Shown one piece after another: positions 13,036-35,104 of a stretch of DNA of 64,000 bases. Origin of the DNA: Nitrospirota bacterium (GTDB lineage Bacteria; Nitrospirota; UBA9217). Location: the NCBI GenBank assembly GCA_963790205.1, contig CAWBNQ010000001.1, positions 416,001 to 480,000 of the forward strand, read 5' to 3'. Below the pieces are notes generated by a model. That model had not been told where the DNA came from and made no database searches. It saw only the letters and a program-made list of their open reading frames with translations. Both the position numbers and the translations under genes were made by a program. The first letter of the stretch is position 1. Every line of letters begins with the position of its first letter.

Positions 13036-13611
13036 TTGAAAAACGAGCTCAGAAAAAAAGCGCTGGTGGCCCGGGACAGCTTATTGCCGGGACAGCGGTC
13101 ATCGAAAAGCAGGCAGATTGAAGAGAGGCTTTTTTCTCTGCCTGAATTCAAGTCGGCACACGTTATTATGTTCTTCGCGTCATTCCGGAGCGAAGTGGAA
13201 ACGGCCCCCATGATCCGTCGGGCGCTGGCTGCCGGAAAACGGGTTGTTCTGCCGAAGGTCAAGGGCAAAGAACTCGAGCTGTTCGAGATAAAAATTTTTG
13301 ACAGCGATGTTTCTCCCGGCGCCTGGGGAATCCCCGAGCCGCGAGGGTCTGCATTGGTAAAGCTCGACGAGCTGGACGTCATTATCGTGCCGGGGGTGGC
13401 ATTCGATGAGCGGGGAAACCGCCTCGGGTATGGAGCGGGGTTTTACGACAAGCTCCTTTCCGAATTTAAAAAGCCGACCGTTGCCATTGCCTTCGAGCAG
13501 CAGATTGTTCCGATGATCCTCGCTGATCCGCACGATGTGCCAGTGAAGAAAATCGTGACGGAAAATAGAATCATAGAAGCAAAATCATTTGCCATAGAGG
13601 GCGCAGAGTAA
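13036..13611 (+). CDS. 5-formyltetrahydrofolate cyclo-ligase
   Basis: WGIPEP, IVPGVAFD, RLGYGAGFYD, HDVPV..IVTE. Confidence 0.93.
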   Translation: MKNELRKKALVARDSLLPGQRSSKSRQIEERLFSLPEFKSAHVIMFFASFRSEVETAPMIRRALAAGKRVVLPKVKGKELELFEIKIFDSDVSPGAWGIPEPRGSALVKLDELDVIIVPGVAFDERGNRLGYGAGFYDKLLSEFKKPTVAIAFEQQIVPMILADPHDVPVKKIVTENRIIEAKSFAIEGAE

Positions 13612-13671
13612 ATAGAAAAGGTGTGCCGATTGCGTCGGGTTCCCTTAGCCGTCCCCTGTGAACTCTGTGGT
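13591..13671. repeat. 9-bp micro-repeat cassette with inverted arms (ACCACAGAG family)
   Basis: GCCATAGAG GGCGCAGAG (13591-608) ... CCCTGTGAA CTCTGTGGT (13654-671). Confidence 0.6.
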
Positions 13672-13679
13672 TAATTCTT

Positions 13680-14246
13680 ATGGACACTAAAAAAATAGAA
13701 AAAGGCGTTCGGCTCATTCTTGAAGGCATCGGTGAGGATGCCGACCGGCCCGGGTTGAAGGATACCCCGCAGCGCGTGGCCGAGATGTATGGGGAAATTT
13801 TTTCCGGCATCTCCGCGAACACCGAAGAGTTAATGAAGCCCATGGCGGGAGAGAGTCACGATGAAATGGTGATGATCCGGGACATCCCGTTTCACTCGAT
13901 GTGCGAACATCATCTCTTGCCCTTCTCCGGCAAGGCCCACATCGCCTACATCCCGGGCGCCGGAAAGATCGTGGGGATCAGCAGCCTGGCCAAGGCGCTC
14001 GAAATCTTTGCGAAGCGGCCGCAGGTGCAGGAGCGATTGACCGCGCAGTTCATCGACCTGATCGTGAGCAGGCTAAAACCCAAGGGCGCGATGGTGGTCA
14101 TCGACGCGGAACATTTATGCATGAGCATGCGCGGCGTGAAGAAGCCGGGCGCCCGTGTCGTCACCTCCGCGGTGCGGGGCAGTTTCCGCAGCAAGGAGTC
14201 CACGCGCATGGAGATGCTCGAGCTTTTGACGAAGCAGGAAAAGTAG
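13680..14246 (+). CDS. folE: GTP cyclohydrolase I
   Basis: [30 protein letters not shown]. Confidence 0.95.
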
Positions 14247-14361
14247 ACTAGCCCCAAAGTAGCAACTCAAAGAATCTCGAGTCTTAAGAACAGCTAATTT
14301 TTCTATCTATTTTTTACTTAAAGCTCGATAATATAGAGTTAATTTACGGCAGGAGTGAATT

Positions 14362-16463
14362 ATGGCAACACAAGATGTGTGCACTCTCGAACCCTATAGA
14401 CCTTACGGCGCTGACATCAAAGAAACAAGGCCCTATTCGCCGTGCCGCGCGGCATGTCCCGGCGCATACGGATGTGCAGGCCTATGTGGGCCTGATCGCC
14501 CAGGGCAAATACACCGAGGCCTTCGAGGTCATCACCTCGGTAAACCCCATCGCGTCGGTCTGCTCCATGATCTGTCACCATCCCTGCGAGCAGTCGTGCA
14601 GGCGCTGCGGTGTTGACGAGCCGCTGGCCGTCCGTCATTTGAAGCGGTTTGCCATCGAGAAGTCCAAGGACTATCGCCGCGCCAAGCGGAAGCTCGTCCA
14701 AAAGACCAGGGGCAAGAGCATCGGCATCATCGGCTCAGGCCCATCGGGCCTGACCGCAGCGCGAGACCTTGCGGACTTGGGCTACAGCGTGACCCTCTAT
14801 GAGAAGCACCCTGTCCTCGGCGGCATGCTCGCTGCCGCGATCCCTCCCTACCGTTTGCCAAGAGAAGTGTTGAAAGAAGATATTGATGACGTTATTTCAA
14901 AAGGCGTCGAGGTCAGGACGAACTTCGAGATCGGCAAAGACGCAAAGCTCGATGATCTCGCAAAGAAGCACGATGCAGTGCTCGTGGCCATCGGTCTTTC
15001 CCTCAGCCGTTCGCTGAATATTCCCGGCGTGGAAGGCCCCGGAGTGCTGCTCGCTATTCCTTACCTGGAAGATGTCGCATTCGGCCGCAAGCCTGCGCTC
15101 GGTAAGAAGGTGCTCGTTATCGGCGGCGGAAACGTTGCCATGGACGTTGCCCGGTCCGCCCGCAGGCTCGGGGTCCAGAACGTCGAGATGGTCTGTCTTG
15201 AGAACGAGCAGGAGATCCCTGCCTGGAAATGGGAAGTGGACGAGGCTGTTGAAGAGGCGATCAAGATCAATTACCGCTGGGGACCCAAGGCGATCAAGCG
15301 TGAAGGCGATAAGGTAAAGGGTCTCGAAGTCACGAAGGTATTGTCGGTCTTTGACGCGAACAAACGGTTCGCTCCGACCTTTGATAATAATGTGACCACG
15401 CTCCTTGAAGCCGACACGATCATTATCACCATCGGCCAGATGTCGAACATGGTCTTTCCTGAAAGACAGCGCGGTCAAGATCGATGAACGCGGACGCGTT
15501 GAATGGAACCCGGCGACCCAGATGAGCAGCGCAAGAAACATTTTCGTCGCGGGCGAGGTCGTGACCGGCCCCGGCTCGGCTATCGCTGCTGTCGCGAACG
15601 GACGCCGGGCTGCCCTGGCAATGCATCTCTATATTCAAGGCGAGACCATCGAGGGCAGGCTTCCTGTGCAGGAGAAGGAAAAGATCGCCGAGATGCCGTC
15701 CGAAGTTGTTGAAAAGATCAGCAAACAGCCGCGCATGAAGATCAAGCATCTCGCTCCCGAGGTCCGCGTCAAGACCATGGACCACTTCGAGATGGGATAC
15801 AGCGAGGCCGAGGCGCTTGAGGAAGCAGGCAGGTGCCGCGGCTGCGGCGGCGGGGCTGTCGTGGACCAGAAGAAGTGCATGGCCTGCCTCACTTGCTGCG
15901 CATCTGTCCTTACGGCGCGCCGGTTGTGACGTCGGTGTCCGACGATCAGGCCCGAGTACTGCCAGGCCTGCGGTCTGTGCGCTCCGGAATGTCCTGCCGA
16001 GGCCATCAGCATGGTGAGCTACGACGTGCGCGAGATCAGAAATTCACTGCCGGCGATCGTCGGCAAGATCGATCCCAAGCGACAGGAGCCGGTCATTGCC
16101 GCCTTCGTGTGTACGCACCACGCGGGCGTGCTCGGTCTCGATCTGCCGAAGAACGTTCGGGCCGTGCCCGTTCACTGCACCAGCCGGATCGATATTCTTG
16201 ATATGTTGAAGGCCTTCGAAGTCGGCGCCGACGGCGTGGCAGTCGTGCGCTGCGGGAGCGGGACCTGCAAGTACCGCGATATAGAGCCCCGGGTGAATGC
16301 GCGCGTGAAGCGGGTGCAGGACCTGCTCGGCATGCTGAAGATCGAGTCCGGGCGTCTTGAGATACTTTCCGCGGCATCAACGAATGGCGGCAATCCCTAC
16401 GCTGCCGTATGTGCTGAGTTTTCCGAACGCCTTAAACAGATAGGTCTGAGTGCTGGTAAATAA
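14362..16463 (+). pseudogene. GltD/NfnB-like FAD-FeS oxidoreductase fused to 2x[4Fe-4S] ferredoxin and MvhD/FlpD domains; 4 single-base indels, probably an intact gene with sequence errors
   Basis: Correcting +C(14458-60), +G(15451-52), -1(about 15896) and +C(15939-40) gives one 699-aa frame: SPCRAACP, ICHHPCEQSC, GSGPSG, GGGNVAMD, CMACLTCxRICP, CQACGLCAPECP, HCTSRID..KAFEVGADGV..RCGSGTCKY. Confidence 0.8.
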
Positions 16464-16503
16464 CAGCCTGCACGAATAGCATGATATAAAGGAGTAATGA
16501 ACA

Positions 16504-17205
16504 ATGATCGTAGGAACACAAAAACCAATCGAAGAAATATGGAACATGGTGAAGGACTTCAAGAAGGTCCTCGTGTTCGGGTGCAACACCTGCGTTGCCA
16601 TCTGCCATGCGGGCGGAGAAAAAGAGGCCGAGACCATTGCGTCCCTCATCAAGATGAAGGCGGCGCAGGAGGGCAAGACCATGATCGTGAACCACCTGGG
16701 GGTCATGCGCCACTGCGAGCCAGAATACTTCGAGCCCGTTATGGACGAGGTGAAGAAGTACGATCTCGTGCTTTCGACAGCCTGCGGCGTGGGCGTGAAC
16801 TTCCTGTCCGACCGGACCGGGACGATCCCCGTGTATCCGGGGATCAATACCTCATTTTACGGCGCTGTCGAAGCGCCCGGCGTGTTCAAGGAGCTTTGCG
16901 CGGGCTGCGGAGACTGCATTCTGCATTTGACCGGGGGAATCTGTCCCGTTGCGCGCTGCGCCAAGACGCTCATGAACGGGCCCTGCGGCGGCACGAACAA
17001 GGGCAAATGCGAGGTAAGCAACGAGATCGACTGCGCCTGGTACCTGATCGTAGAGCGCATGAAGAAGCTCGGCACCCTGGAAAAGCTCTCCGAGATCCAG
17101 CCGCCCAGGAACTGGTCAACGTCCCGCGACGGCGGGCCGAGGCGCATATCTCTGGAGCATATCCGGGAGTATGAGGAGAAGGAAGAGGCAAAGGCCGGGA
17201 AGTAA
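16504..17205 (+). CDS. metV: Methylene-THF reductase FeS partner subunit MetV
   Basis: GCNTCVAIC, ACGVGV, CAGCGDC, CPVARCAKTLMNGPCGG, CAW; adjacent to metF. Confidence 0.9.
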   Translation: MIVGTQKPIEEIWNMVKDFKKVLVFGCNTCVAICHAGGEKEAETIASLIKMKAAQEGKTMIVNHLGVMRHCEPEYFEPVMDEVKKYDLVLSTACGVGVNFLSDRTGTIPVYPGINTSFYGAVEAPGVFKELCAGCGDCILHLTGGICPVARCAKTLMNGPCGGTNKGKCEVSNEIDCAWYLIVERMKKLGTLEKLSEIQPPRNWSTSRDGGPRRISLEHIREYEEKEEAKAGK

Positions 17206-17214
17206 GTCTAAGAT

Positions 17215-17269
17215 CCGTTCAACCCGTTTAGCCCGTTTGAACTGTTTAAACAGTTGGAACTGTTTGAAC
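17215..17269. repeat. Six 9-bp quasi-palindromic tandem units (CnGTTYAAA family)
   Basis: CCGTTCAAC CCGTTTAGC CCGTTTGAA CTGTTTAAA CAGTTGGAA CTGTTTGAA. Confidence 0.75.
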
Positions 17270-17296
17270 CAGAAGATTAAAACCTGGAGGCTTAGG

Positions 17297-18268
17297 ATGA
17301 AGAGTGGAAGCACGCTGGAAAAAGTACTCGCGAGCGGCAAGCCCGCGGTCACGGCAGAGCTCGGCCCCCCCATGAGCGCCGATCCCCATGAGGTCATCAA
17401 GAAAGCGCAGCAGCTCAAGGGCTTCTGCGACGCGGCGAACATCACTGATTGTCAGACCGCGGTCGTCCGGATCTCGAGCATTGCCGCCGCGGCCATCGCG
17501 TTTCAGCAAGGGCTGGAGCCGGTCATGCAGATGACCTGCCGCGACCGGAACCGCATTGCCATGCAGGCCGACCTTCTCGGTGCCGCCGCGCTCGGGCTCA
17601 AGAACTGCCTCTGCCTTGCGGGCGACCACCAGAAATTCAGCGCCGCGGGAAGGCTCAAGGGCCACCCCGGCGCAAAGAACGTATACGACGTGGATACCTG
17701 CCAACTCGTCGGTATTCTCAAGAAGATGCGCGACGAGAGCAAGCAGGACGGCGGCGACCCGATCGAAGTGCCGCCCAAGTTCTTTATCGGCGCTTCCTGG
17801 ACGCCCATGGCCGACCCCATCGATTTCAGGCCGATCAATCTCATGAAGAAAGTGAATGCCGGGGCCGACTTTATCCAGACCCAGGGCATCTACGATATGG
17901 AAGGTTTCCGCGCGCAGATGGCAAAGATCCGGAACATGGGTCTTCACGAGAGGACCGCGATCCTTGCCGGTATTATCGTCCCGAAAAGCGCCATGATGCT
18001 GAAGTATATGGATTCCTCTGTTGCCGGCGTGTCGGTGCCGAAGGCCCTCATAGACCGGATGAACAAGGCCAAAGCGGCCGCAGGTGAGGACAAGAAAAAA
18101 GCCAGGGAGCTCCAGGAGCAGGAAGGCATCAAGATCACGATCGAGCTTATCCACCAGGCTTTGGAGACCCCCGGCGTAAGGGGCGTGCACATCCAGGCCA
18201 TCGAGTGGGAGAGCGCCATCGAAGGGATCGTGAAGGCTGCGGGGCTGTATCCGAGGCCCTCTTTTTGA
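17297..18268 (+). CDS. metF: Methylenetetrahydrofolate reductase MetF
   Basis: TAELGPP, NITD, TCRDRNR, AGD, KKVNAGADFIQTQ; GGAGG RBS before ATG 17297. Confidence 0.93.
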   Translation: MKSGSTLEKVLASGKPAVTAELGPPMSADPHEVIKKAQQLKGFCDAANITDCQTAVVRISSIAAAAIAFQQGLEPVMQMTCRDRNRIAMQADLLGAAALGLKNCLCLAGDHQKFSAAGRLKGHPGAKNVYDVDTCQLVGILKKMRDESKQDGGDPIEVPPKFFIGASWTPMADPIDFRPINLMKKVNAGADFIQTQGIYDMEGFRAQMAKIRNMGLHERTAILAGIIVPKSAMMLKYMDSSVAGVSVPKALIDRMNKAKAAAGEDKKKARELQEQEGIKITIELIHQALETPGVRGVHIQAIEWESAIEGIVKAAGLYPRPSF

Positions 18269-18318
18269 TTGCGGATTGTAGATTGCGGATTGCGGAATGA
18301 AAAGAATAAATCTGAAAT
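18267..18318. repeat. 7-bp tandem micro-repeat (GATTGCG x4) with one degenerate inverted unit
   Basis: GATTGCG GATTGTA GATTGCG GATTGCG GAATG starting in the metF stop; AATCTGAAAT at 18309-18318. Confidence 0.7.
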
Positions 18319-18324
18319 AAAACT

Positions 18325-19125
18325 ATGCCGAAAATAACAGTTCTAGACATATATAAGAAGAAGGCCGAAGGCAAGAAGATCACCATGCTCACGGCTTACG
18401 ATTATCCCACTGCCCAGATCGTGGACCAGGCCGGCATTGATATGATACTCGTAGGCGATTCTCTCGGCATGGTGGTACAGGGAGTGACAAGCACTCTTCC
18501 GGTCACGATGGACGAGATGATCTATCACACAAGAATGGCCTCGCGCGCAGCACAATCCTCCATGGTTGTGGGCGACATGCCCTTTCTGTCGTACCAGACA
18601 AGCGCCTCCGACGCTGTTCGAAATGCCGGCCGCTTCCTGAAGGAAGCGGGTGCTGAAGCGGTGAAGCTCGAAGGCGGAAGCCAGATGGCCGACGCCATCA
18701 GGGCGATTGTGAATGCCGGGATCCCTGTTGTGGCCCATATCGGACTGACCCCGCAGTATGTCCACATGCTCGGCGGTTTTAAAGTACAGGGCAAGGATGA
18801 CGCTGCACGGGAAAAGATACTTGCCGACGCAAGGGCGGTCCAGGATGCAGGCGCGTTTTCCGTGGTACTGGAAGCAATGCCGTCCTCCCTTGCAAAAGAG
18901 ATCCATGGAATGCTCCATATCCCGACCATAGGGATCGGTGCCGGCCCTGATTGTGACGGCCAAGTCCTCGTAATTCATGACATATTAGGTCTTTTTGACC
19001 GGTTTACTCCCAAGTTCGTAAAGAAATACGCCAACCTCAAAGACCAGGCGCTGAAGGCGGTAAAAGAGTATAAGCAGGATGTAGAAGGCGGCAAATTCCC
19101 GTCCGAAGAGCACAGCTTCAAATAA
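18325..19125 (+). CDS. panB: Ketopantoate hydroxymethyltransferase
   Basis: MLTAYD, LVGDSLG, VKLEGG, HIGLTPQ, IGIGAG..CDGQVLV. Confidence 0.97.
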
Positions 19126-19249
19126 TAAGACCGACAACAAGAGTGGATTTTCGTAACAAAGGGGCAGCTACCTTTTGTAGCGCACGCATTTTTATCAATG
19201 AAATTTATAACTTAATTAAAAAATATTGTCGGCATCTTCTCAATTATTC

Positions 19250-19279
19250 TTGACTCATGAGATAGGTGTTGGATATAAT
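19250..19279 (+). promoter_or_regulatory. sigma70 promoter for thyX
   Basis: TTGACT(19250-55)-N18-TATAAT(19274-79). Confidence 0.6.
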
Positions 19280-19285
19280 ATCCTT

Positions 19286-19355
19286 CCCTTGTCATCCGTA
19301 TTTTTCCCCTTTTCTCGCTGTAAGGGTGTCGAGGGTCGCTCTGGAGAGGAGGGGA
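19286..19355 (+). promoter_or_regulatory. Structured thyX leader with two crossing helices, one masking the SD
   Basis: 19286-97 pairs with 19324-35 (11/12 including GU); 19305-16 pairs with 19344-55 (12/12 including 2 GU), covering AGGAGG. Confidence 0.45.
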
Positions 19356-19359
19356 CAAC

Positions 19360-20091
19360 ATGCCTGAAACAGCATTAAACGTGGTTCTCCTCCGGCATAC
19401 GCCGGAACCTGAGGAAGTTGTGGCAATGGCGGCAAAGCTTTGCTACAGCCCGTCTGGCGTTGAGGAGCTGAAGGGGAAGATCGAGGCCAAGGACCAGGCT
19501 GCCTTTGTGGAGAAGCTGGCGGCCATCGGACACCTGTCCCCGATCGAGCATGTTTCGTTCTCCTTTGGCATTGAGGGCATCTCCCGGGCCTGCTCTCATC
19601 AGCTTGTCCGCCATCGCGTGGCGTCTTATTCTCAGCAAAGCCAGCGCTATGTGAAGGCAGAGCAGTTCGACTATGTGATCCCTCCGAGCATCAAGCAGGA
19701 CCCGGCCCTGGTCCGTGAGTTTGAGAAGTTCATGGCCGAGGCCCAGGAGAATTACACCAAAGTCCTGAAGCGGCTCGAAGAGCTCGGGTATAAGGGCGAA
19801 GCCGGACAGCAGGACGCTCGCTATTTGCTGCCGAACGCGGCGGAGACGAAGATAGTAGTCACCATGAACGCCCGTGAGCTCCTGCACTTCTTCCGCGTGC
19901 GGTGCTGCAACCGGGCGCAGTGGGAGATCCGGGAAATGGCCGAGCGCATGCTCGCGCTCGTGAAAAAAGCGGCGCCGACGATCTTCGCCAAGTCCGGTCC
20001 CGGCTGTCTCTATGCAGCCTGTCCCGAGGGAAAGATGACCTGCGGCAAGATCGAAGAGGTCAGGAAGAAGTTCGGGGTGATGAAAGCATAG
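19360..20091 (+). CDS. thyX: FAD-dependent thymidylate synthase
   Basis: GHLSPIEH, SHQLVRHRVASYSQQSQRY, NARELLHFFRVRCCNRAQWEIR. Confidence 0.95.
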   Translation: MPETALNVVLLRHTPEPEEVVAMAAKLCYSPSGVEELKGKIEAKDQAAFVEKLAAIGHLSPIEHVSFSFGIEGISRACSHQLVRHRVASYSQQSQRYVKAEQFDYVIPPSIKQDPALVREFEKFMAEAQENYTKVLKRLEELGYKGEAGQQDARYLLPNAAETKIVVTMNARELLHFFRVRCCNRAQWEIREMAERMLALVKKAAPTIFAKSGPGCLYAACPEGKMTCGKIEEVRKKFGVMKA

Positions 20092-20156
20092 GGTTCAGCG
20101 ATCAGGGCTCAGGGTTCAGGAAATGCTCAACCCTGGACCCTATCCCCCGAACCCTG
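20090..20156. repeat. 7-bp micro-repeat cassette with inverted arms (AGGGTTC family)
   Basis: AGGGTTC AGCGATC AGGGCTC AGGGTTC ... CCCTGGA CCCTATC CCCCGAA CCCTG. Confidence 0.7.
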
Positions 20157-20169
20157 TAGTTGAGGTACC

Positions 20170-20940
20170 ATGGGTTTTACAATAGCAGTTGCAGGTAAGG
20201 GCGGCACGGGCAAGACCAGCCTGGCCGGTCTTACCATTCGATATTTGACAGAGAAAAGGCGCGGCGCGGTGCTTGCCGTTGACGCCGACGCCAATGCGAA
20301 CCTGAATGACGTGCTCGGGGTGAAGGTCCACGCAACCGTAGGCAAGCTGCGGGAGACTTCCCTCGAAGCCGTCAAGTCCACGGCCCCGCGGCCGGGCGGC
20401 ATGAGCATGGAGCAGCTCTTCGACTATCAGATCCAGCAGGCATTGGTCGAAGCAAAAGGCTTCGACCTTCTGGTGATGGGCAGGCCCGAGGGTTCGGGTT
20501 GTTACTGCGCGGCGAACAACATCATCCGCAAGTACATGGACAAGCTGGCCGACTCCTATCCCTTTACGGTCATGGACAACGAAGCCGGCCTCGAGCACCT
20601 GTCGCGACGCACAACCCAGGACACGGACCTGCTCCTTATCATCAGCGACTCCTCGGTGCGCGGCGTAATGACCGCCGGCCGTATCGGCGAGCTGGTAAAA
20701 GAACTGGACCTGAACGTCAAACGTTCGGTCCTGATCGTGAACCGCGTGCAGGACGGGACGAGTGACGACCGGTCGCTCCAGAAGGCAATCGAGCAGCAGG
20801 GCGTGGAATTCGCGGGCTTTGTTCCGGCGGACGAGCTGATCTTTGAATACGATTTGAACGGCAGGCCCCTTATCCAGCTTCCCGCTGATTCCAAAGCGTT
20901 GACGAGCTTCTATACCGTACTGGACAATTTGATCCCCTAG
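20170..20940 (+). CDS. acsF: CooC/AcsF-family Ni-insertion ATPase (second paralog)
   Basis: GKGGTGKT, DADANANL, GRPEGSGCYCAAN, DNEAGLEHLSRRT; inside the acs cluster. Confidence 0.85.
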   Translation: MGFTIAVAGKGGTGKTSLAGLTIRYLTEKRRGAVLAVDADANANLNDVLGVKVHATVGKLRETSLEAVKSTAPRPGGMSMEQLFDYQIQQALVEAKGFDLLVMGRPEGSGCYCAANNIIRKYMDKLADSYPFTVMDNEAGLEHLSRRTTQDTDLLLIISDSSVRGVMTAGRIGELVKELDLNVKRSVLIVNRVQDGTSDDRSLQKAIEQQGVEFAGFVPADELIFEYDLNGRPLIQLPADSKALTSFYTVLDNLIP

Positions 20941-20943
20941 ACT

Positions 20944-21852
20944 ATGCCCCCTAAAACGGTCGCCATCATAGGCGCAGGTCGTGTCGGCAGTTCAGTGGGG
21001 TTCCTGCTCAAGCGGGCAGGATATGCCGTCACCGCAGTAGCGGCACGAACCGCGGCGGCAGCAGAAAAGGCCTCGGCTTTTATCGGCGGGGGAGACCCTC
21101 TTGTCGATGTTATAAAGGCAGCGTCCAAAGCAGAGATCGTTTTTATCACTACGCCGGACAGGGACATTAGAGAAGTCTGCGACACGATATCAACCAACGG
21201 TGGGTTGAAGCGCGGGTCACTCGCGGTACACATGTCCGGCGCTCACTCGCTCGATCTCCTGAATGCGGCACGAAAAGCAGGTTCCTATCGGGCGGTGATT
21301 CATCCGCTCCAGTCGCTGGCGAGCAAAGAGCAGGGTATCAAGAACCTCCCGGGCTCGTACTTCCGTATCGAAGCAGACCCCGAGGCGCTGAAGACGGCGA
21401 AAGATATCGTGAAGGCGCTGGACGGCATCGAGCTGGTAATGCCGAAGTGGAGTTCAGATAAGGAGTCAGCCGCCCTCTATCACGCAGGTGCGGTCGCGGT
21501 ATCGAACTACTTCGTGGCCCTTGTTGACTACGGCTTAAAGTTTTATCAGGCGTTGGGCGCCGACAAAAAGGAGGCGTTCAACGCAGTGCTTCCGCTTATC
21601 CGGGGGACGCTTGACAATATCGAGACGCTCGGCATCCCCGACGCGCTCACCGGTCCGATCATGCGGGGCGATGTGCAGACCGTGCGCGACCACCTCGATG
21701 CCATGCAGAAGCGGACGCCGGAGCTGACGGGCCTTTATAAGGAACTGGCGCGTCAGACAGTGTCCGTGGCCAGGGACAAAGGAAGCATCACCCGGGAGAA
21801 GGCGGAGGAACTTTTGAAGCTGGTGAAAAACGAGAAAAGCCGTGAGGAGTAA
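20944..21852 (+). CDS. Rossmann-like + DUF2520 oxidoreductase (possible PanG-type ketopantoate reductase)
   Basis: IIGAGRVG, HMSGA, HPLQS, YHAGAV, ALTGPIMRGD. Confidence 0.85.
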   Translation: MPPKTVAIIGAGRVGSSVGFLLKRAGYAVTAVAARTAAAAEKASAFIGGGDPLVDVIKAASKAEIVFITTPDRDIREVCDTISTNGGLKRGSLAVHMSGAHSLDLLNAARKAGSYRAVIHPLQSLASKEQGIKNLPGSYFRIEADPEALKTAKDIVKALDGIELVMPKWSSDKESAALYHAGAVAVSNYFVALVDYGLKFYQALGADKKEAFNAVLPLIRGTLDNIETLGIPDALTGPIMRGDVQTVRDHLDAMQKRTPELTGLYKELARQTVSVARDKGSITREKAEELLKLVKNEKSREE

Positions 21853-21903
21853 GGAGTAAGGAGATTAAATCTTAAACCCTCTTCTTACACCTGATGCCTC
21901 ACG
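21841..21903. repeat. 7-bp micro-repeat cassette with inverted arms (CGTGAGG family)
   Basis: CGTGAGG AGTAAGG AGTAAGG ... TCTTACA CCTGATG CCTCACG. Confidence 0.7.
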
Positions 21904-21944
21904 AGAAGTTATAGATTCAGATTCGAAAGGAGAAGTTTCAGAAC

Positions 21945-22733
21945 ATGATAATTATCGGAGAAAAGATAAGCGTTATCGCGAAGAAAGTGCGCGAGGCCCT
22001 CACGAAGTTCGATCCCAAACCGCTCCAGGAACTGGCCGTGGCGCAGGCCAAAGCCGGCGCGAATTTTATCGACATTTCCATCGGCCCGGCCGAGGAGAAC
22101 GGCCCCAAGCTCATGGATTGGGCGGTGAAAGTCCTGCAGGAAGCGGTGGAAAAGCCGCTCTGCCTCGACACCACGAACATCAAGGCCATGGAGGCGGGTC
22201 TCAAGGCGCACAACAACGCGTGGGGAGTGCCGATCATCAATTCCACGTCCAACGAGCCGGAACGCTTCCCGATGATGGAGCTCGCGGGCAAGTACAATGC
22301 CAAGATCATCGCGCTTACCCTGGGCAAGGGCAGCATCCCCGCGGACGCCGAGGACCGCTGCGGCATTGCGGCCGAGATCATGGCCCGCGCCATGGAGAAC
22401 GGCGTGCCTATGGAGAACCTTTTCCTCGACCCCCTCATCCTCCAGCTGTGCACCATGCAGGACCAGGGGCTCCAGGCGATCAGGGCCGTCAAGATGTTCC
22501 AGCAACTGAACGATCCGCCCATGCAGACGGTAGTCGGGCTTTCCAATATTTCGAATGGCGCGCCTAAGCACGTTCGGCCCATTATCAACCGAAATTTCCT
22601 TACGATGCTCATCTACGAGGGGCTTTCGGCCGCGATCATCGACCCGCTCGATAAGGACATGATGGACACGGTCAAGACCACGGAGATGATTATGGGTAAA
22701 AGCATGTATGCCCATTCGTACCTGGACATGTAG
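21945..22733 (+). CDS. acsE: Methyl-THF:corrinoid/FeS protein methyltransferase
   Basis: MIIIGEKI, LCLDT, IINS, LFLDP, GLSNISNG, AAIIDP (pterin-binding barrel); next to acsD. Confidence 0.9.
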   Translation: MIIIGEKISVIAKKVREALTKFDPKPLQELAVAQAKAGANFIDISIGPAEENGPKLMDWAVKVLQEAVEKPLCLDTTNIKAMEAGLKAHNNAWGVPIINSTSNEPERFPMMELAGKYNAKIIALTLGKGSIPADAEDRCGIAAEIMARAMENGVPMENLFLDPLILQLCTMQDQGLQAIRAVKMFQQLNDPPMQTVVGLSNISNGAPKHVRPIINRNFLTMLIYEGLSAAIIDPLDKDMMDTVKTTEMIMGKSMYAHSYLDM

Positions 22734-22778
22734 GCTACCGTCGGCCGGCGCCGGAGACTGAACCGGTAAACGAACCCT

Positions 22779-22807
22779 TTGACATTCCGGCAGCATCACT
22801 TTATAAT
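22779..22807 (+). promoter_or_regulatory. Consensus sigma70 promoter for acsD onward
   Basis: Exact TTGACA(22779-84)-N17-TATAAT(22802-07). Confidence 0.8.
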
Positions 22808-22850
22808 ACACGGGCATTTTTCGTTTTTTACAAATAATCAGGAGGCTTTC

Positions 22851-23789: not shown

Positions 23790-23795
23790 AACATG

Positions 23796-23866: not shown

Positions 23867-23892
23867 AGGTTTATTGAAAGGAGCACAAAATA

Positions 23893-25233: not shown

Positions 25234-25243
25234 AAATAGATTC

Positions 25244-25297
25244 ACCACAGAGAGCACCGAGAAAAACTTTTTAGACTACCTCTGTAACCTCTGTGGC
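25244..25297. repeat. 9-bp micro-repeat cassette with inverted arms (ACCACAGAG family)
   Basis: ACCACAGAG AGCACCGAG ... CTCTGTAAC CTCTGTGGC. Confidence 0.75.
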
Positions 25298-25320
25298 TAA
25301 AAAGCATTTTAAAGGAGTCA

Positions 25321-27525: not shown

Positions 27526-27545
27526 AAGAATCAGAACCCGGAAGG

Positions 27546-27615
27546 GGTCAGGCGTGAGGCGTGAGGGGCTTTTTAAATCCTCGTTCGCGCCACCCTGCCG
27601 CCTCCCGGCCTCCTT
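27546..27615. repeat. 7-bp micro-repeat cassette with inverted arms (CGTGAGG family)
   Basis: GGTCAGG CGTGAGG CGTGAGG ... CCTGCCG CCTCCCG G CCTCCTT. Confidence 0.6.
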
Positions 27616-27666
27616 GGCCGCCGGGAAAAATGAGGCGGCTATTTTTGTCTCAAGAGGAAGTGAACG

Positions 27667-28149
27667 ATGGAAAAAAAACTGGAAGGTATACTGTCGCGGT
27701 ACCGAGAAAACGAAGGGAACCTGATCTCGATCCTGCAGGACCTCGAGAGCGAATTCGGCTATCTGCGTGAAGACGCGATCAACTGGATCGCGGAGCAGCT
27801 CGATGTCCCCCCTGCGAAGTTTTACGGCATCGCGACGTTTTATGCGCAGTTCCATCTGAAGCCCAGGGGCAAGAATGTCATAACGGCCTGCTGCGGCACG
27901 GCCTGCCACGTCAAGGGGTCCGAGCGGCTGATCACCAGCCTCGTGAAAGAACTAGCCATTCCCGAAGGTGAGGAGACATCCGAAGACCTCAAGTTCACCG
28001 TGGAAAAGGTGAACTGTGTGGGAGCCTGCAGCATTGCCCCGGTCATCATCATCAATAAAACCGTGAACGGCAAGATGACGCCGGACAAGCTTATGAAAGA
28101 GATGAAGACCCTCAAGGAAGGGAAGCGGGAGTACACCGACTATATTTAA
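27667..28149 (+). CDS. NuoE/HydC-like [2Fe-2S] subunit
   Basis: ATFYAQF, CCGTACHVKG, NCVGACSIAP. Confidence 0.92.
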   Translation: MEKKLEGILSRYRENEGNLISILQDLESEFGYLREDAINWIAEQLDVPPAKFYGIATFYAQFHLKPRGKNVITACCGTACHVKGSERLITSLVKELAIPEGEETSEDLKFTVEKVNCVGACSIAPVIIINKTVNGKMTPDKLMKEMKTLKEGKREYTDYI

Positions 28150-28153
28150 ACAA

Positions 28154-28188
28154 CGGTTAACGGTTTAAACAGTTCAAACCGCTTAAAC
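28154..28188. repeat. 9-bp quasi-palindromic tandem units (CnGTTYAAA family)
   Basis: CGGTTAA CGGTTTAAA CAGTTCAAA CCGCTTAAA C. Confidence 0.65.
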
Positions 28189-28221
28189 GGCCAATAGGTT
28201 TCTATCCGGAGTAACGTAATC

Positions 28222-30000
28222 ATGAAGAAAGACGTTTCGATAAAAGTATGCATGGGCACGGGCGGGATCGCCGCGGGCGGCGTGGAGGTGATGTCCACGT
28301 TCGAGAAGGCGCTTGCTTCCGCCGGCATAAAAGCATCAGTGGCAAAGAACTGCTCAATGCATAAGGTCGGCTGCCGGGGCTTTTGCGCGCGCGACGTGCT
28401 GGTCGATGTGATCATCGACGGCGGCAAGTCCACGTACCAGTACATCAAGCCCGACATGGTCGAGCGGATCGTGCATGAACATATTGTCGGCGGCGCTCCC
28501 GTGGGCGACTGGCTCGTGACCGACGACTATCACACCTTCCACGACAAGCAGATCAAGGTTGTGCTCTCGGACTGCGGCGAAGTGGACCCCGAGGACATCG
28601 AATCCTATATTGCGCGCGGCGGCTACGAGGCGACCAAAAAGGTCCTTACGACCATGACCCCGCAGGAAACGATCGAGGTGATCAAGGCCTCGGGTCTTCG
28701 CGGCAGGGGCGGCGCGGGCTTCCCGACCGGCACCAAGTGGGACATGGCGATCAAGGCCCCGGGTCCGGTCAAGTACCTCATTTGTAATGCCGACGAAGGA
28801 GATCCGGGGGCGTTCATGGACCGCTCGGTCGTCGAAGGAAACCCGCATGCGGTCATCGAGGGCATGCTTATCGGCGCCTATGCCATCGGCGCGCCTTATG
28901 GTTATGTCTATATCAGGGCTGAATACCCCCTTGCAGTGGAGCGGCTTCACCTTGCGATCAAACAGGCGAAGGAGCGCGGGTTCCTCGGCAAGAATATTCT
29001 CGGCAAAGAGCTGGATTTTACGATCAAGGTAAAACTCGGAGCCGGCGCTTTCGTCTGCGGCGAAGAGACGGCGCTCATCGCTTCCATCGAAGGAAAGCGC
29101 GGCCAGCCCCGCGCCAAACCGCCGTTCCCGGTCCAGAAGGGGCTGTGGGGGAAGCCGACGATCATTAATAACGTCGAGACACTCGCGAATGTGCCCTACA
29201 TCATCCGGAAGGGCGCTTCGTGGTATGCCGGAATGGGGACCGAGAAAAGCAAGGGCACCAAGGTCTTTGCGCTTACCGGCAAGATACTGAACTCCGGACT
29301 GATCGAAGTCCCGATGGGCATCCCGCTCAAAGAAGTGATCTATGATATCGGCGGGGGCATCGAAGGGGGCAAAAAGCTCAAGGCCGTCCAGACCGGCGGG
29401 CCTTCCGGCGGCTGCATTCCCTCGAACATGATGGATACCACGCTGGATTATGAATCACTCGGAAAAGTCGGGTCCATCATGGGCTCGGGCGGCATGGTGG
29501 TGCTGGACGAGACCGACTGCATGGTGAATGTCGCCAAGTACTTTCTCGAGTTTACCAAATCCGAGTCCTGCGGCAAATGCATACCCTGCCGGATCGGGAC
29601 CAAACGGCTCCTGGAGATTTTGACGCGGATCACCGAAGGCAAGGGGAGGGAAGGCGATATCGAGCTCCTCGAGACCCTGAGCAGCGACGTGAAGACCTCG
29701 TCGCTCTGCGGCCTTGGTCAGAGCGCGCCGAATCCGGTCCTCTCCACGATCAGGTACTACCGTGATGAATACGAGGCGCACATTTACGAAAAGCGCTGCC
29801 CCGCCGGCGTATGCAAAGACCTTCTCTCCTATAGCATCCTGGAGGAATTTTGCAAAGGGTGCACGGCCTGCACACGGGTCTGTCCTGCCGGCGCCATCAT
29901 CGGCGAGAAGAAAAAGCCGCACAAGATCATCCAGGACATCTGCATCAAGTGCGGCGCCTGTTTCGAGACCTGCAAGTTCAAGGCGATAAAAAAAGGGTAA
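28222..30000 (+). CDS. NuoF/HydB-like FMN/NADH-binding FeS subunit
   Basis: GLRGRGGAGFP, NADEGDPGAFMDR, CGEETAL, GGPSGG, ESCGKCIPCR, two C-terminal CxxCxxCxxxC motifs. Confidence 0.95.
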   Translation: MKKDVSIKVCMGTGGIAAGGVEVMSTFEKALASAGIKASVAKNCSMHKVGCRGFCARDVLVDVIIDGGKSTYQYIKPDMVERIVHEHIVGGAPVGDWLVTDDYHTFHDKQIKVVLSDCGEVDPEDIESYIARGGYEATKKVLTTMTPQETIEVIKASGLRGRGGAGFPTGTKWDMAIKAPGPVKYLICNADEGDPGAFMDRSVVEGNPHAVIEGMLIGAYAIGAPYGYVYIRAEYPLAVERLHLAIKQAKERGFLGKNILGKELDFTIKVKLGAGAFVCGEETALIASIEGKRGQPRAKPPFPVQKGLWGKPTIINNVETLANVPYIIRKGASWYAGMGTEKSKGTKVFALTGKILNSGLIEVPMGIPLKEVIYDIGGGIEGGKKLKAVQTGGPSGGCIPSNMMDTTLDYESLGKVGSIMGSGGMVVLDETDCMVNVAKYFLEFTKSESCGKCIPCRIGTKRLLEILTRITEGKGREGDIELLETLSSDVKTSSLCGLGQSAPNPVLSTIRYYRDEYEAHIYEKRCPAGVCKDLLSYSILEEFCKGCTACTRVCPAGAIIGEKKKPHKIIQDICIKCGACFETCKFKAIKKG

Positions 30001-30003
30001 GGT

Positions 30004-32676
30004 ATGGCAAATCTTTCTATCAATGGCAGGAAAATTACTGTTCCCAACAATAGTACCATTCTCGACGCTGCGCGGCGAAATGACATCTATATCCCGACGC
30101 TCTGCGACGACCCGAGGCTCGAACCCTACGGCGGATGCAGGCTCTGCCTCATCCAGGTGAAAGGCATGCCCAGGCCGGTGACCGCGTGCACCACGCCGGT
30201 CACCGAGGGCATGGAAGTCGAGACCACGAACGAGCAGATCGAGCGCCAGCGCCGTACCATTGTCGAACTTCTCCTGTCCGACCATCCCAACGACTGCATG
30301 GTCTGCGAGCGGGCCGGTGACTGCACGCTCCAGGAACTGGCCTACTTCTACGAGATCCGGTCGAACCGCTTCGCCGGAGAGCGGCGACAGTATACGAAAA
30401 AGGACCTGAACCCCTTCATCGAGCGCGACATGGAGAAGTGCATACTCTGCGGCAAGTGCGTGCGCGTGTGCGACGAGATCCAGGGCCTCGGCGCGATCGA
30501 TATCGCGGGGAGGGGCTTCACCGCCAAGGTAACGCCGCCCTTTGAAAAGGACCTGGACTGCGAGTTCTGCGGCCAGTGCGTCAGTATCTGTCCCACCGGC
30601 GCGCTCATCGGCAAGCAGTCGCTCGGCAAGGGCAGGCAGAAGGACGTGAAGGAGGTCGAGACCGTCTGCGGCTACTGCGGGTGCGGGTGCAACCTCACCC
30701 TGCATGTGAGCAGGAACGAAGTGGTCCGCGTCACCTCGCGGCCGGACACGATCAACGAGGGCTGGCTCTGCGTCAAGGGACGGTTCGGATACAGCTTTAT
30801 CAACAGCCCGGACCGGCTCACGACGCCGCTCGTCAAGAAGGACGGTTTGTTCATTGAAGCGTCCTGGGACGAGGCCTTCGCCCTCATTGCCGAACGCTTA
30901 AGCGCCATCAAGGAAAAACACGGGCCCGATGCCATCGGCGGGCTCTCTTCGGCCCGGTGCACCAACGAGGAAAATTATCTTTTCCAGAAATTCATCCGCG
31001 CAGGCATCGGCACGAACAACGTCGATCACTGCGCGCGCTACTGACACAGCTCGACCGTGGCCGGTCTGGCCACCGTATTCGGTTCCGGGGCAATGACGAA
31101 CTCGATCGCCGAGATCGAGAACAACGACGTACTGTTCGTCATCGGCTCGAACACCAAGGAGAACCACCCCATCGTAGCGCTTCGGATGATCAAGGCGAAG
31201 CGCAAAGGAGCGAAGATCATCATCGCCGACCCGAGGCGGGTCCCGATGGTCCGGTTCGCGGACATCTGGATGCAGCACAAGCCCGGCACGGATGTGGCGC
31301 TTTTGAACGGGATGATGCATGTGCTCCTGAAGGAAGGCCTGGTCAAGAAGGATTTCATCTCTTCCATGACCGAAGGGTTCGATGACGAGTTCAGGAAGAA
31401 TATCGAGGACTTTACGCCCGAGGCCGCCTCGAAGATCACCGGCGTACCCGCGGACACGATCGTCAAGGCCGCGCGCCTGTACGGGAGCTCGGACCGCGCC
31501 GGTATCTACTATACGATGGGAATCACCCAGCATGCCCACGGCACGGAGAACGTGTTCTCCATCGCCAATCTCGCGCTCATGACCGGAAACCTCGGCAAGG
31601 AGGCTGCCGGCGTCAACCCGCTCCGCGGACAGAACAATGTCCAGGGCGCCACGGACATGGGATGCATCCCGAACATGTATCCCGGATACCAGCGCGTGAA
31701 CATACCGGCGATCCGGGAGAAGTTCGAGGCCCTGTGGAAGGCAAAGCTCTCCGAAAAGGAGGGGCTTACCGCCACGGATATGCTTCCGGCCGCGGAAAAA
31801 GGCATCATCAAGGCCCTGTACATCATGGGAGAAAATCCGGTCATCAGCGATCCCGACGTTGCCCATACCACCAAGGCGCTCAAGGCGCTCGATTTCCTCG
31901 TCGTGCAGGACATCTTCATGACCGAAACGGCCGCGCTTGCGCATGTCGTATTGCCCGCCTCATCGTTCGCGGAGAAGGTCGGGACGTTCACGAACACCGA
32001 GCGGAGGGTTCAGCGCGTGAGAAGGGCGGTCAACTCCCCCGGGGACGCGATGAAGGACTCGCTCATCATCATGGAACTCTCGAAGCGGATGGGCTACGAA
32101 ATGTCCTATCCGCATACCGTCGAGATCTTCCGCGAGATCGGACAGGCCTGGCCCGCGATGGCGGGGATGAGCTATGCCAGGCTCGAGGACGGCGGCCTCC
32201 AGTGGCCCTGTCCCACGCCGGAACATCCGGGAACGCAGTTCCTGTTCAAGGGCGGATTCCCGCGCGGCAAGGGCAGGCTTACGCTCGTGAAATACAAACA
32301 GTCGGTTGAGCTTACTGACAAGGACTATCCGTTCATCTTGACCACGGGGCGGCAGTTGTTCCAGTACCACACCGGCGGCATGACGCGCCGGGTAAAGCCG
32401 ATCAACACGGTCTCGCCGGAGTCCTACGTCGAGATCAACCCAGATGATGCCCGGTCCCTTTCAATCAAGGGCGGATCGAACGTGAAGGTGAGCTCGCGCA
32501 GGGGTTCCATTACCGTGAAGGCGTTGGTGTCGAAGAGGCCGGCAAAAGGCGTCGTGTTCATACCCTTCCACTTCAAGGAAGCGGCGGCCAATGTGCTTAC
32601 GAGCAGCAGCTCCCTCGATCCCATAGCCAAGATCCCGTCGTTCAAGGTCTCGGCGGTGAGGATCGAAAAGGCGTAA
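30004..32676 (+). CDS. fdhA: Selenocysteine formate dehydrogenase alpha subunit with NuoG-like N-terminal FeS domains (890 aa by UGA read-through)
   Basis: ORFs 30004-31044 and 31057-32676 share a frame across TGA 31042-44: DHCARY-U-HSSTVAGL..FGSGAMTN; RGQNNVQG; CGYCGCGC. Confidence 0.93.
31045..31076 (+). promoter_or_regulatory. Bacterial SECIS element
   Basis: GTGGCC-GGTCT-GGCCAC hairpin (31057-31073) starting 12 nt after the UGA; loop resembles the E. coli fdhF SECIS. Confidence 0.85.
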
Positions 32677-32691
32677 TCCTCAAATAGGGAT

Positions 32692-32763
32692 TAACCACAG
32701 AGAACGCAGAGGGGCGTCTTGTCCTTAATCCTTGTGCAGCTTACTCTGTGACCTCTGTGGTTA
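32692..32763. repeat. 9-bp micro-repeat cassette with inverted arms (ACCACAGAG family)
   Basis: TAACCACAGAG AACGCAGAG ... CTCTGTGAC CTCTGTGGTTA; outer 11 bp are a perfect inverted repeat. Confidence 0.8.
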
Positions 32764-32797
32764 GAAGGTTTAACAGTTTTTCAACGAGGAGGAAACA

Positions 32798-33256
32798 ATG
32801 GCCGACAAATCGGAACTCAAGAAACAGATACTCTTCAGCGATCTGACCGACGCCGAGCTCGGCATGATGGCGCAGAAGATCGTCGTCGAGAACTACGCAA
32901 AAGGGACGGCCATATTCAAAGCAGGCGAGCCCACGAAAGGCATCTACCTGGTGAAGACCGGGAAGGTGGAGATCTCGATGACCACCGCCGACGGGTGGAA
33001 GCAGACCCTTGCCATCCTCCTGGAAAACCATATTTTCGGCGAGCTCGCCGTTATCGAAGACAAGCAGACCCACGGCGCAGACGCCACGGCCATCGAGGCC
33101 ACGGAAGTCTACCGCATCAAGGCCGACGACTTCAAAGCACTCGAAAAAAGCGATACGAACATGATGTATAAGATCATGAAGACCATGGCCCGCATTGCGA
33201 GCAGGAACGTGCACTCCATGAACGAGAAGCTCATGAAGCTCCTGATCAGCTATTAA
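32798..33256 (+). CDS. Stand-alone cyclic-nucleotide-binding domain protein
   Basis: LFSDL, IFKAGE, IYLVKTGKVEI, IFGELA, ADATA; no HTH follows. Confidence 0.85.
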   Translation: MADKSELKKQILFSDLTDAELGMMAQKIVVENYAKGTAIFKAGEPTKGIYLVKTGKVEISMTTADGWKQTLAILLENHIFGELAVIEDKQTHGADATAIEATEVYRIKADDFKALEKSDTNMMYKIMKTMARIASRNVHSMNEKLMKLLISY

Positions 33257-33260
33257 ATAA

Positions 33261-33288
33261 CCGTTCAAGCGGTTCAAACGGCTTAAAC
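33261..33288. repeat. 9-bp quasi-palindromic tandem units (CnGTTYAAA family)
   Basis: CCGTTCAAG CGGTTCAAA CGGCTTAAA C. Confidence 0.7.
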
Positions 33289-33315
33289 TAAAATTTTCTA
33301 CAAGGGAGGTTAAGA

Positions 33316-35079
33316 ATGGCACTGGATCCTACGAAGCACGCGGATTGGGAAATCGCGGAAGATTCTGAGAAGCACATGAGGCCTATCACCGAGATCGCGA
33401 AAAAGATGGGGCTCAACGATGACGAGCTGCTCCTGCACGGCCATCATATTGCAAAGATCGATTTCAAGAAAGTGCTCAAGCGTTTTGAGGGAAAGCCGGA
33501 CGGCAAGTACATAGACGTCACGGCCATTACGCCCACGCCGCTCGGCGAAGGCAAGTCCACCTCGACCATTGGGCTCACCCAGGGCCTCGGCAAGCGCGGC
33601 AAGAACGTGATCGCCGCGATCCGCCAGCCCTCGGGCGGCCCTACCATGAACATCAAGGGCTCGGCGGCCGGCGGCGGTCTTTCGCAGGTCATCCCGCTCA
33701 CGCCGTTCTCGCTGGGCCTGACCGGCGACATCAATGCCATCATGAACGCGCACAACCTTGCGATGGTGGCCTTGACCTCCCGGATGCAGCATGAGTTCAA
33801 CTACAATGACGAGCAGCTTTCCAAGAGAAAATTAAAGCGGCTGAATATCGATCCGCACAACGTGGAAATGAAGTGGATCATGGATTTTTGCGCCCAGTCG
33901 CTCCGCGAGATCACGATCGGCATGGGCGGCAAGTCGAACGGCTTTATGATGAAGTCCGGTTTTGCCATTGCCGTGTCTTCCGAGGTCATGGCCATCCTGG
34001 CAGTTGCCAAGGACCTTAAGGACATGCGGGAGCGTATGGGCAGGATCGTGGTTGCCTACAGCAAGGACGGCACGCCGGTCACCACGGCGGACCTCGGAGT
34101 GGACGGAGCCATGACCGCGTGGATGGTCGAGGCCCTCAATCCGAATCTGCTCCAGACCATCGAAGGCCAGCCCGTGTTCGTGCACGCAGGGCCCTTCGCA
34201 AATATCGCTATCGGCCAGTCCTCCATTATCGCAGACCGCGTGGGCCTGAAACTCGGCGACTATGTCGTGACCGAGTCGGGCTTTGCCGCGGACATCGGCT
34301 TCGAGAAATTTTGGAACCTCAAGTGCCGCATGTCCGGCCTCAAGCCGCATGCAGCCGTGGTCGTTGCAACGATCCGTGCGCTCAAGTGCCACGGCGGCGC
34401 GCCGATCCCGGTGCCGGGCAAGCCCATGCCTGCCGAATACAAGGGAGAAAACGTCGGCTGGGTCGAGAAGGGCTGCGATAACCTTATCCACCACATCAAG
34501 ACCGTGAAAAAGGCCGGCATCAACCCCGTGGTCTGCATCAATGCCTTCTACACCGACACGGACAATGAGATCAAGGCTGTTCGGAGGCTCGCCGAGGCGG
34601 CGGGCGCGCGCGTGGCCCTGTCCCGTCACTGGGAAAAGGGAGGCGATGGCGCTCTGGAATTCGCCGATGCGGTCATTGACGCGTGCAACGAGAAAAACGA
34701 CTTCAAGTTCCTCTACGAGCTTAGCACGCCGCTCCGTCAGCGCATCGACCTGATTGCGAAGGAGGTTTACGGCGCGGACGGTGTCGATTATACGCCCGAG
34801 GCGGAGGCCAAGGCCAAGAAGATGGAGGCGGACCCCGATCTCGCCAAGATGGGCGTCTGCATGGTGAAGACGCACCTCTCGCTCACGGACAACCCGACCA
34901 TCAAGGGAGTTCCCAGGGGCTGGAGGCTCCGCATTCGCGATATCCTGACCTACAAGGGCGCGGGCTTCGTGGTTCCCGTTGCCGGCACGATTACACTTAT
35001 GCCCGGCACATCTTCCGATCCGGCATATCGTCGTGTGGACGTGGATGTGGAGACCGGGAAGGTAAAGGGCGTGTTCTAG
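33316..35079 (+). CDS. fhs: Formate--tetrahydrofolate ligase
   Basis: [46 protein letters not shown]. Confidence 0.97.
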
Positions 35080-35083
35080 AGAA

Positions 35084-35104
35084 AATTCAAGATTCAAAAT
35101 TCAA
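35084..35104. repeat. 7-bp tandem micro-repeat (AATTCAA x3)
   Basis: AATTCAA GATTCAA AATTCAA just after the fhs stop. Confidence 0.55.

Follow-up and report, generated by a model that had tools for sequence, protein, structure and literature searches.

The gene cluster and its intergenic arrays

A Wood-Ljungdahl (carbon-fixation) gene cluster occupies positions 13,036-35,079 of a 64,000-nucleotide stretch of DNA from a Nitrospirota bacterium (assembly GCA_963790205.1, contig CAWBNQ010000001.1), and twelve of its spacers carry tandem arrays of 7-9 bp units, most of them arranged as inverted arms. The whole stretch is termed the window. The first half of the cluster comprises genes for 5-formyltetrahydrofolate (5-formyl-THF) cyclo-ligase, folE, an hdrA-like gene, mvhD, metV, metF, panB, thyX and a CooC-like ATPase (cooC2); the second half comprises DUF2520, acsE, acsD, acsC, acsB, nuoE/nuoF-like genes, formate dehydrogenase (fdh), a CRP-domain gene (crp) and fhs. 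Short gene names are in part assigned here, and genes were called by a custom script that places a few starts wrongly. The genome under study is designated G000, other genomes of its family are given as G### and loci of other genomes or metagenomes as L###. A shell denotes arms that enclose no gene. The arrays and two empty slots are as follows.

13591..13673, plus strand: GxxExxY-type 8/9-mer shell; left arm within the last 5-formyl-THF cyclo-ligase codons, right arm before folE; inverted pair p=0.066
17215..17269, plus strand: self-complementary 9-mer array, metV-metF; p=0.003; family flanks four-helix-bundle genes in L277, L293 and L341
18267..18322, plus strand: GATTGCG 7-mer array; starts in the metF stop codon; right arm vestigial; four-helix-bundle arm family
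20090..20161, plus strand: AGGGTTC 7-mer two-arm shell, thyX-cooC2; the identical word flanks a four-helix-bundle gene at G000:C14:70630
20941..20943, plus strand: empty slot of 3 nt, cooC2-DUF2520; distinct orthologous spacers are ≤25 nt in 14/35, with a significant inverted repeat in 12
21841..21903, plus strand: AGGAGTA 7-mer two-arm shell; overlaps the DUF2520 stop codon
23789..23872, plus strand: 8-mer two-arm shell, acsD-acsC; family flanks four-helix-bundle genes in L224, L229, L230 and L235
25241..25297, plus strand: GxxExxY-type two-arm shell, acsC-acsB; family on both arms of 15/30 GxxExxY and 0/107 four-helix-bundle genes
27534..27612, plus strand: AGGCGTG 7-mer two-arm shell, acsB-nuoE; then a separate conserved U-tailed hairpin
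28154..28189, plus strand: self-complementary 9-mer array, nuoE-nuoF; shuffle test; inverted-arm p=0.082
30001..30003, plus strand: empty slot of 3 nt, nuoF-fdhN; an arm-flanked four-helix-bundle gene lies here in L075, L058, L082, L196 and L137
32692..32763, plus strand: GxxExxY-type two-arm shell, fdh-crp; three different arm groups in the closest relatives
33259..33287, plus strand: self-complementary 9-mer array, crp-fhs; shuffle test
35082..35106, plus strand: AAAATTC 7-mer single arm after fhs; terminator-like hairpin directly downstream

All twelve arrays named in the original prediction are present. A 7-9 bp tandem score was compared with 300 dinucleotide shuffles per spacer, and in 11 of the 12 arrays it exceeds the shuffles (p<0.02). 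The array at 13591, whose left arm is in the upstream gene and outside the tested spacer, gives p=0.13 and shows up as a borderline inverted pair; sibling spacers of this shell are found elsewhere in G000. Inverted arms reach p≤0.066 in nine arrays and 0.082 at 28154, and are not significant at 18267 and 35084. The arms divide as had been described, into seven two-arm, three self-complementary and two essentially single-arm arrays, and the predicted minimum of six unit families becomes seven. Such repeats are indeed scarce in the remainder of the window: a score of at least 8 is found in 8 of 19 cluster spacers vs 0 of 29 other spacers. Rfam gives no match in 13000-36000.

Distribution and placement in the genome

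The comparison with shuffled spacers was extended to all of G000. Among co-oriented spacers 299 of 1987 score at least 8 where 11.4 are expected; for convergent spacers the count is 24 of 316 (1.6 expected) and for divergent ones 16 of 291 (3.2). The excess extends across all spacer classes, and the repeats are therefore a genome-wide feature that is not confined to the cluster. For array density the cluster ranks at the top of 2031 sliding 22-kb windows, and occupied spacers tend to cluster (0.24 vs 0.15 expected). By quintile of gene codon typicality, which is a proxy for expression only, occupancy is 31% at the top vs 6% at the bottom. The ribosomal and ATP-synthase genes at the right end of the window are without arrays.

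Repeat hairpins start a median of 3 nt past the stop codon and end a median of 20 nt ahead of the next start, and the ribosome-binding site is spared. A beginning at or just after a stop codon, as originally predicted, is a tendency (58% of 154 repeat hairpins lie ≤5 nt from the stop) and not a rule. The stop codon itself is covered by 21 of 295 arrays vs 8.8 in a control, enriched yet uncommon, and a strict targeting of stop codons is weakly supported. The hairpins do not resemble intrinsic terminators, in that 15 of 154 have a U-tail and their mismatches differ from those of terminator-like stems (see below). The view that the arrays are not terminators stands with two corrections: the spacer at 27546 also has a separate U-tailed hairpin, and a terminator-like hairpin follows the last array at 35084. 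The former, at 27617-27650, is a probable internal terminator and is kept in most of the family, while the adjoining repeat hairpin varies.

The vocabulary is limited: its words return at hundreds of sites, and one is shared by different phyla. Every element of the window has relatives of its own family in G000, and the likeness between such spacers reaches beyond the tandem units.

Small genes flanked by the same words

The repeat words are also found around two kinds of small gene, termed cargo. In G000 these are four four-helix-bundle loci (TIGR02436; not counting four weaker matches, which lie on longer genes) and eight GxxExxY loci (TIGR04256). All 12 genes have inverted arrays of such words on their two sides and share the orientation of both neighbours; the arms persist around three that are broken or partial. 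The proteins match PF05635 (four-helix bundle; closest structure PDB 2GSC, with a weak bAvd match) and PF13366 (GxxExxY). The GxxExxY proteins of G000 retain a D...E-x-K motif, which we take to be that of a nuclease with the PD-(D/E)XK fold.

Flanks were compared for 107 four-helix-bundle and 30 GxxExxY genes of the family (108 + 30 loci had been drawn from longer match lists). Five window families are found on both arms of four-helix-bundle genes, the GATTGCG-array family (18267) in 13 of 107 and the others in 2, 1, 1 and 2, and on none of the 30 GxxExxY genes. One family, that at acsC-acsB, has the opposite distribution (15 of 30 GxxExxY, 0 of 107 four-helix-bundle genes). The self-complementary 9-mer family is absent from these flanks; among 104 pattern-matched loci of other genomes, 76 of them with long flanks, it surrounds four-helix-bundle genes in 3. 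The statement in the original prediction, that similar repeats flank such genes elsewhere, is thereby borne out for all seven unit families.

Arm words track cargo subfamily. Clustering of the arms of 137 genes without typed motifs gave 26 groups, 25 of them pure for one cargo type, and 29 singletons. At different slots, arms are shared by 40% of 86 pairs of four-helix-bundle genes with protein similarity of at least 0.6 vs 0.1% of 4357 distant pairs; for GxxExxY genes the values are 36% of 42 similar vs 5% of 179 distant pairs. In an own-arm pairing test, which is biased by the picking of arms, no more than 2-3 members per family (n 6-40) paired best with their own partner. Two controls were discarded. 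A reverse-complement control of the clustering is void, as an inverted repeat reads identically on both strands, and reverse-polarity counts (0) reflect only the inward direction of the arms, which filled cassettes also have, and carry no information on orientation to the host.

Turnover at orthologous junctions

The same junctions were compared in 16 family genomes and in 52 of 79 metagenome loci, those with AcsB ≥80% identical; loci <80% were excluded from slot counts. Slots were given family labels by grouping k-mers conservatively, which assigned 121 of 402 distinct spacers against ~10 expected, and by reading by eye. Gene order is largely retained across the compared loci and spacer content is not. 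Among distinct spacers a significant inverted repeat is found in 37/52 at acsC-acsB, 21/32 at thyX-cooC2 and 25/45 at acsD-acsC, and at these three junctions the repeats belong to several arm groups and to both cargo types.

Replacements are found among close relatives. Where AcsB is 95-97% identical to that of G000, three different arm groups are seen at fdh-crp, next to a retained ribosome-binding part; at crp-fhs a 7-mer family takes the place of the 9-mers; and the acsC-acsB hairpin varies between strong and decayed to a remnant. At metV-metF a 90-nt spacer is replaced by 128 other letters between flanks that are ~96-97% identical (contigs from two runs of one study). The acsC-acsB and thyX-cooC2 spacers of G000 match distant loci better than the closest ones. 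Nesting also occurs: G004 has two hairpins within the loop of a hairpin that G007 has alone.

The nuoF-fdhN junction is 3 nt long in G000, and 19 of its 33 distinct spacers do not exceed 25 nt. In L075, L058, L082, L196 and L137 it is filled by an arm-flanked four-helix-bundle gene, full-length and in one frame in L082, and at least two insertion lineages can be told apart from where the protein starts and which arm word is used. The right arm of L075 and of L137 falls in frame inside a predicted N-terminal extension of FdhN. A filled form was not found at any of the twelve occupied slots in the 16 genomes and 52 loci. With filled, shell and empty states at one orthologous gap, and with every unit family flanking cargo genes, the earlier suggestion of empty shells is supported.

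Several spacers hold unrelated material. In G010 the fdh-crp, crp-fhs and acsC-acsB spacers (L031/L032, L006) contain near-identical, partly tandem copies of an unrelated ~90-nt element, one of them within the loop of a GxxExxY-type shell. L053 has a palindromic insert of ~43 nt inside the left arm at acsD-acsC, and L054 is without it. The metF-panB spacer of G003 (L035/L036) carries a broken toxin-antitoxin-like gene pair, presumably of HicAB type. In other genomes this spacer holds a gene for a secreted glutaredoxin-like protein, where the first Cys of CPYC is an in-frame TGA in G010, G016, G023 and L090 and a Cys codon in L072 and L099; in the four former cases the product is a probable selenoprotein.

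Mismatches and hairpin strength

A stem that is selected in mRNA is expected to tolerate G·U above A·C mismatches on the sense strand. Repeat hairpins do not display such an excess: the G·U:A·C counts are 317:293 in 148 spacers of G000 and 327:360 in 182 orthologous spacers, and filled cassettes give 290:270 and 81:85. For isolated mismatches the repeat hairpins give 72:65 vs 23:1 in 73 terminator-like stems of the same genome, which are short and were found by a different procedure (Fisher p=2e-5). Sense and antisense strands fold about equally well (85 vs 68, p=0.11; 94 vs 84, p=0.67). The repeat hairpins decay strand-symmetrically, and the G·U signature of RNA-selected stems is missing.

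These counts bear on the first explanation offered in the original prediction, by which mRNA hairpins, through processing or stability, set subunit stoichiometry. In the form considered here, the hairpins would be selected by the host for the ratios of the Wood-Ljungdahl proteins, through selective processing and stabilisation, and the cassette arms would serve merely as raw material. There is support for it. The acsD-acsC, acsC-acsB and thyX-cooC2 junctions are highly occupied, and spacers weaker than −8 kcal/mol number 0/45, 2/51 and 0/32, respectively. The stems measure 20-35 bp, and an RNase III gene is present in G000. In addition, near-consensus sigma-70 promoters are found at 19250-19279 (panB-thyX) and 22779-22807 (acsE-acsD), both in longer spacers that are without repeats in G000. 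On the other hand, the sense strand has neither a G·U excess nor a folding advantage, and there is no fixed ranking of strength: the order among thyX-cooC2, acsD-acsC, acsC-acsB and fdh-crp is near a coin toss (17/32, 14/31, 25/43 and 14/25), though these four slots are seldom without structure and crp-fhs and nuoE-nuoF hairpins tend to be weaker. In five close loci the acsC-acsB hairpin ranges from −7 to −46 kcal/mol, and families are swapped between close relatives, whereas published stem-loops of selective RNA processing and stabilisation (SRPS) stay with their gene in the study cited (bioRxiv 2021.06.12.447814). The stoichiometry reading is disfavoured, and host selection of the hairpins in mRNA appears improbable as the explanation of the arrays; incidental processing at these sites may nonetheless occur.

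A mobile cassette as the probable origin of the arrays

The arrays are real and non-random, and can be described as cassettes of the intervening sequence (IVS) type, with heptamer arms, in mRNA junctions. From the comparison of sequences, they are probably shells, without a gene, of a mobile cassette whose landing site is the interval between stop codon and ribosome-binding site, where it takes the place of earlier occupants. Behind this reading stand direct observations: words in common, the filled, shell and empty forms of a single junction, swaps, nesting, sense orientation, a preference for codon-typical genes and strand-symmetric mismatches.

The proposed course of events is as follows. 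Cassettes would enter transcribed junctions between the stop codon and the ribosome-binding site, and newcomers would replace old cassettes or nest in them, the previous occupant likely being replaced at the DNA level. The host would tolerate them because the stop codon and ribosome-binding site are kept. The few filled copies might be expressed by read-through from the host operon, and each cargo protein would recognize its own word on DNA, as the parallel between arm word and cargo subfamily suggests. A GxxExxY protein of PD-(D/E)XK fold would nick DNA hairpins that heavy transcription exposes in operons; this step in trans is put forward tentatively, as perhaps part of the process. Shells might arise by loss of the cargo gene, by copying in trans, or both. 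Swaps may be fresh insertions or allele exchange between lineages.

Several points weigh against the mobile-cassette interpretation. No target-site duplication is clear in pairwise alignments, and a filled/empty pair from the same species was not found. Near-identical shell copies are absent from G000, where the best scores are ~1/4 to 3/5 of the self score, so that there is no sign of a recent burst. Shell loops of 10-45 nt contain no cargo remnant, and among 2222 spacers no new remnant was found beyond the known genes and one 19.7-bit match on a longer gene. In six of the seven window families the associated protein is not known to act as a nuclease. Past a tree distance of 0.15, homology is lost about as quickly in the acsE-acsD spacer, which has no repeats, and turnover alone is therefore not diagnostic. 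High occupancy at acsC-acsB and thyX-cooC2, with hairpins rarely weaker than −8 kcal/mol, is expected under hairpin selection too. Finally, the terminator control for G·U pairs was obtained by another procedure, as stated above, and non-repeat hairpins from the same pipeline give G·U:A·C of 263:201 overall and 55:42 for isolated mismatches.

An IVS-like RNA route has also been considered, by which RNase III acts on the arms in the transcript and an Avd-like four-helix-bundle protein helps a host reverse transcriptase to copy the unit back into transcribed DNA. The 23S IVS of Coxiella carries tandem heptamers upstream of the S23p gene, and RNase III cleaves it within the stem, according to the passages that describe it (PMC4990558), and PF05635 is likened to the Avd protein of diversity-generating retroelements (DGRs) in the section concerned (PMC10053308), consistent with the weak bAvd match; moreover, 12 of 12 cargo genes in G000 are in sense and core operons are preferred. 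Yet even filled cassettes are without the G·U signature, and the two reverse transcriptases of G000 look, by their sequences, like group II intron proteins, with no cargo among their listed neighbours. The arm within the predicted FdhN extension of L075 and L137 also fits badly with obligatory cutting, since a cut in the stem would remove the FdhN start. This route seems unlikely.

Reverse transcriptases and Y1 transposases were both tried as mobilisers and set aside, with no link to cargo or arms seen in G000; seven PF01797 (Y1-transposase) matches are present, and their printed flanks, read by eye, are without these arms.

Least of all is it to be expected that the arrays arise locally by slippage and template switching, with small genes merely inserting into existing hairpins: varying unit numbers, decayed arms, single-arm cases and the lack of identical copies would fit, but a limited word set recurs at hundreds of sites and one word across phyla, words track cargo subfamily at unrelated slots, and siblings share letters beyond the tandem units.

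Heptamer repeats, the S23p/four-helix-bundle family and the GxxExxY family have each been known for long and are unexplained, and this cluster joins all three at single gene junctions. The window contributes two points, that slots along a core operon have had their occupants replaced and that the G·U signature is absent; such hairpins, which here lack this mark of RNA-selected stems, should not be read as stoichiometry signals. On a broader and more speculative view, one that is possible though not the one to be expected, tiny genes of rival families, the Avd-like four-helix bundles and the PD-(D/E)XK nucleases, would be widespread selfish elements, each family having a 7-9-base word of its own, that colonize the most active operon junctions and evict one another from a shared slot. 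If true, this would explain the puzzle of bacterial heptamer repeats and supply many word-specific DNA-binding or DNA-cutting proteins. The cluster enables a direct test of whether each protein binds or cuts its own word.

Other features of the window

The formate dehydrogenase alpha gene is split by an in-frame TGA at 31042-31044, with an identical 12-nt gap in 11 of the 12 relatives shown; the TGA is likely a selenocysteine codon. The hdrA-like gene (14375-15929) has several frames in G000 and one frame in G018, and the breaks represent assembly errors or a pseudogene. Tandem repeats of 18 bp and 30 bp at 57297-57405 and 281-340 are unrelated to the cassettes.

Comparison with known systems

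SRPS stem-loops are similarly intergenic and within an operon of a multi-subunit machine; they stay with their gene and their pattern of strength matters, as set out in the study cited (bioRxiv 2021.06.12.447814), whereas the hairpins here are swapped and unranked, and neither stem-loop nor strength is conserved with the gene. Miniature inverted-repeat transposable elements differ as well, in that near-identical dispersed copies are not found here and no duplication is evident in pairwise alignments. The repetitive extragenic palindromic (REP)/RAYT system resembles the cassettes in having a small gene with its own repeat on its flanks, hundreds of repeats elsewhere without a gene, and covariation of protein and repeat; its protein has an HUH fold, however, and each REP forms its own small hairpin. 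Arms like those in the window were not seen by eye in the printed flanks of the seven PF01797 matches.

Closer in composition is the 23S rRNA IVS with an open reading frame in Coxiella and Leptospira, which has an S23p/PF05635/TIGR02436 protein, tandem heptamers and RNase III excision. According to the passages that describe it, the same protein family is encoded there in a loop closed by terminal inverted arms that carry tandem heptamers, and the whole is part of a host transcript (PMC4990558). The open reading frame in the loop is present in the filled forms, and the twelve window elements are without it. The differences are that the elements here are in mRNA junctions, all twelve arrays lying between protein genes, that they are mostly gene-less, have GxxExxY as a second cargo and many arm words, and that families replace each other. 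PF13366 is listed as of unknown function in the entry concerned (PMC3424549).

Intergenic heptamer arrays have been described as the short tandemly repeated repetitive (STRR) sequences of cyanobacteria (PMC2670836), in Xanthomonas and Nostoc (PMC4692102) and in Beggiatoaceae (PMC4679880), with function unexplained. The sections on these arrays treat one or a few words, propose roles in G-quadruplex formation, stability or translation, and give no link to a cargo gene; "four-helix-bundle" has 0 occurrences in the text of PMC4679880. The likeness lies in tandem 7-mers between co-oriented genes, near or over the stop codon and often as convergent pairs, which is also what is found here, in spacers of aligned genes with paired inverted arrays. 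The cluster differs in that seven families of 7-9-mers, including 8- and 9-mers, are found together. No paper that joins the arms, both cargo families and gene-less shells was found in searches of the open-access literature.

For the pairing of protein and word, the Ssn nucleases are, by analogy, the closest tested counterpart. As described in the main part of that report, the gene is bordered by an NTS/SRM repeat of its own, which is cut as single-stranded DNA, and protein-repeat pairs covary (PMC11893778). A small gene with its own repeat, and hundreds of gene-less repeats in the genome, are common to both systems. Ssn proteins have the GIY-YIG fold and each SRM is its own small hairpin, whereas in the cassettes described here the flanked genes are of the PF05635 and PF13366 families and two arms of tandem words enclose the gene.

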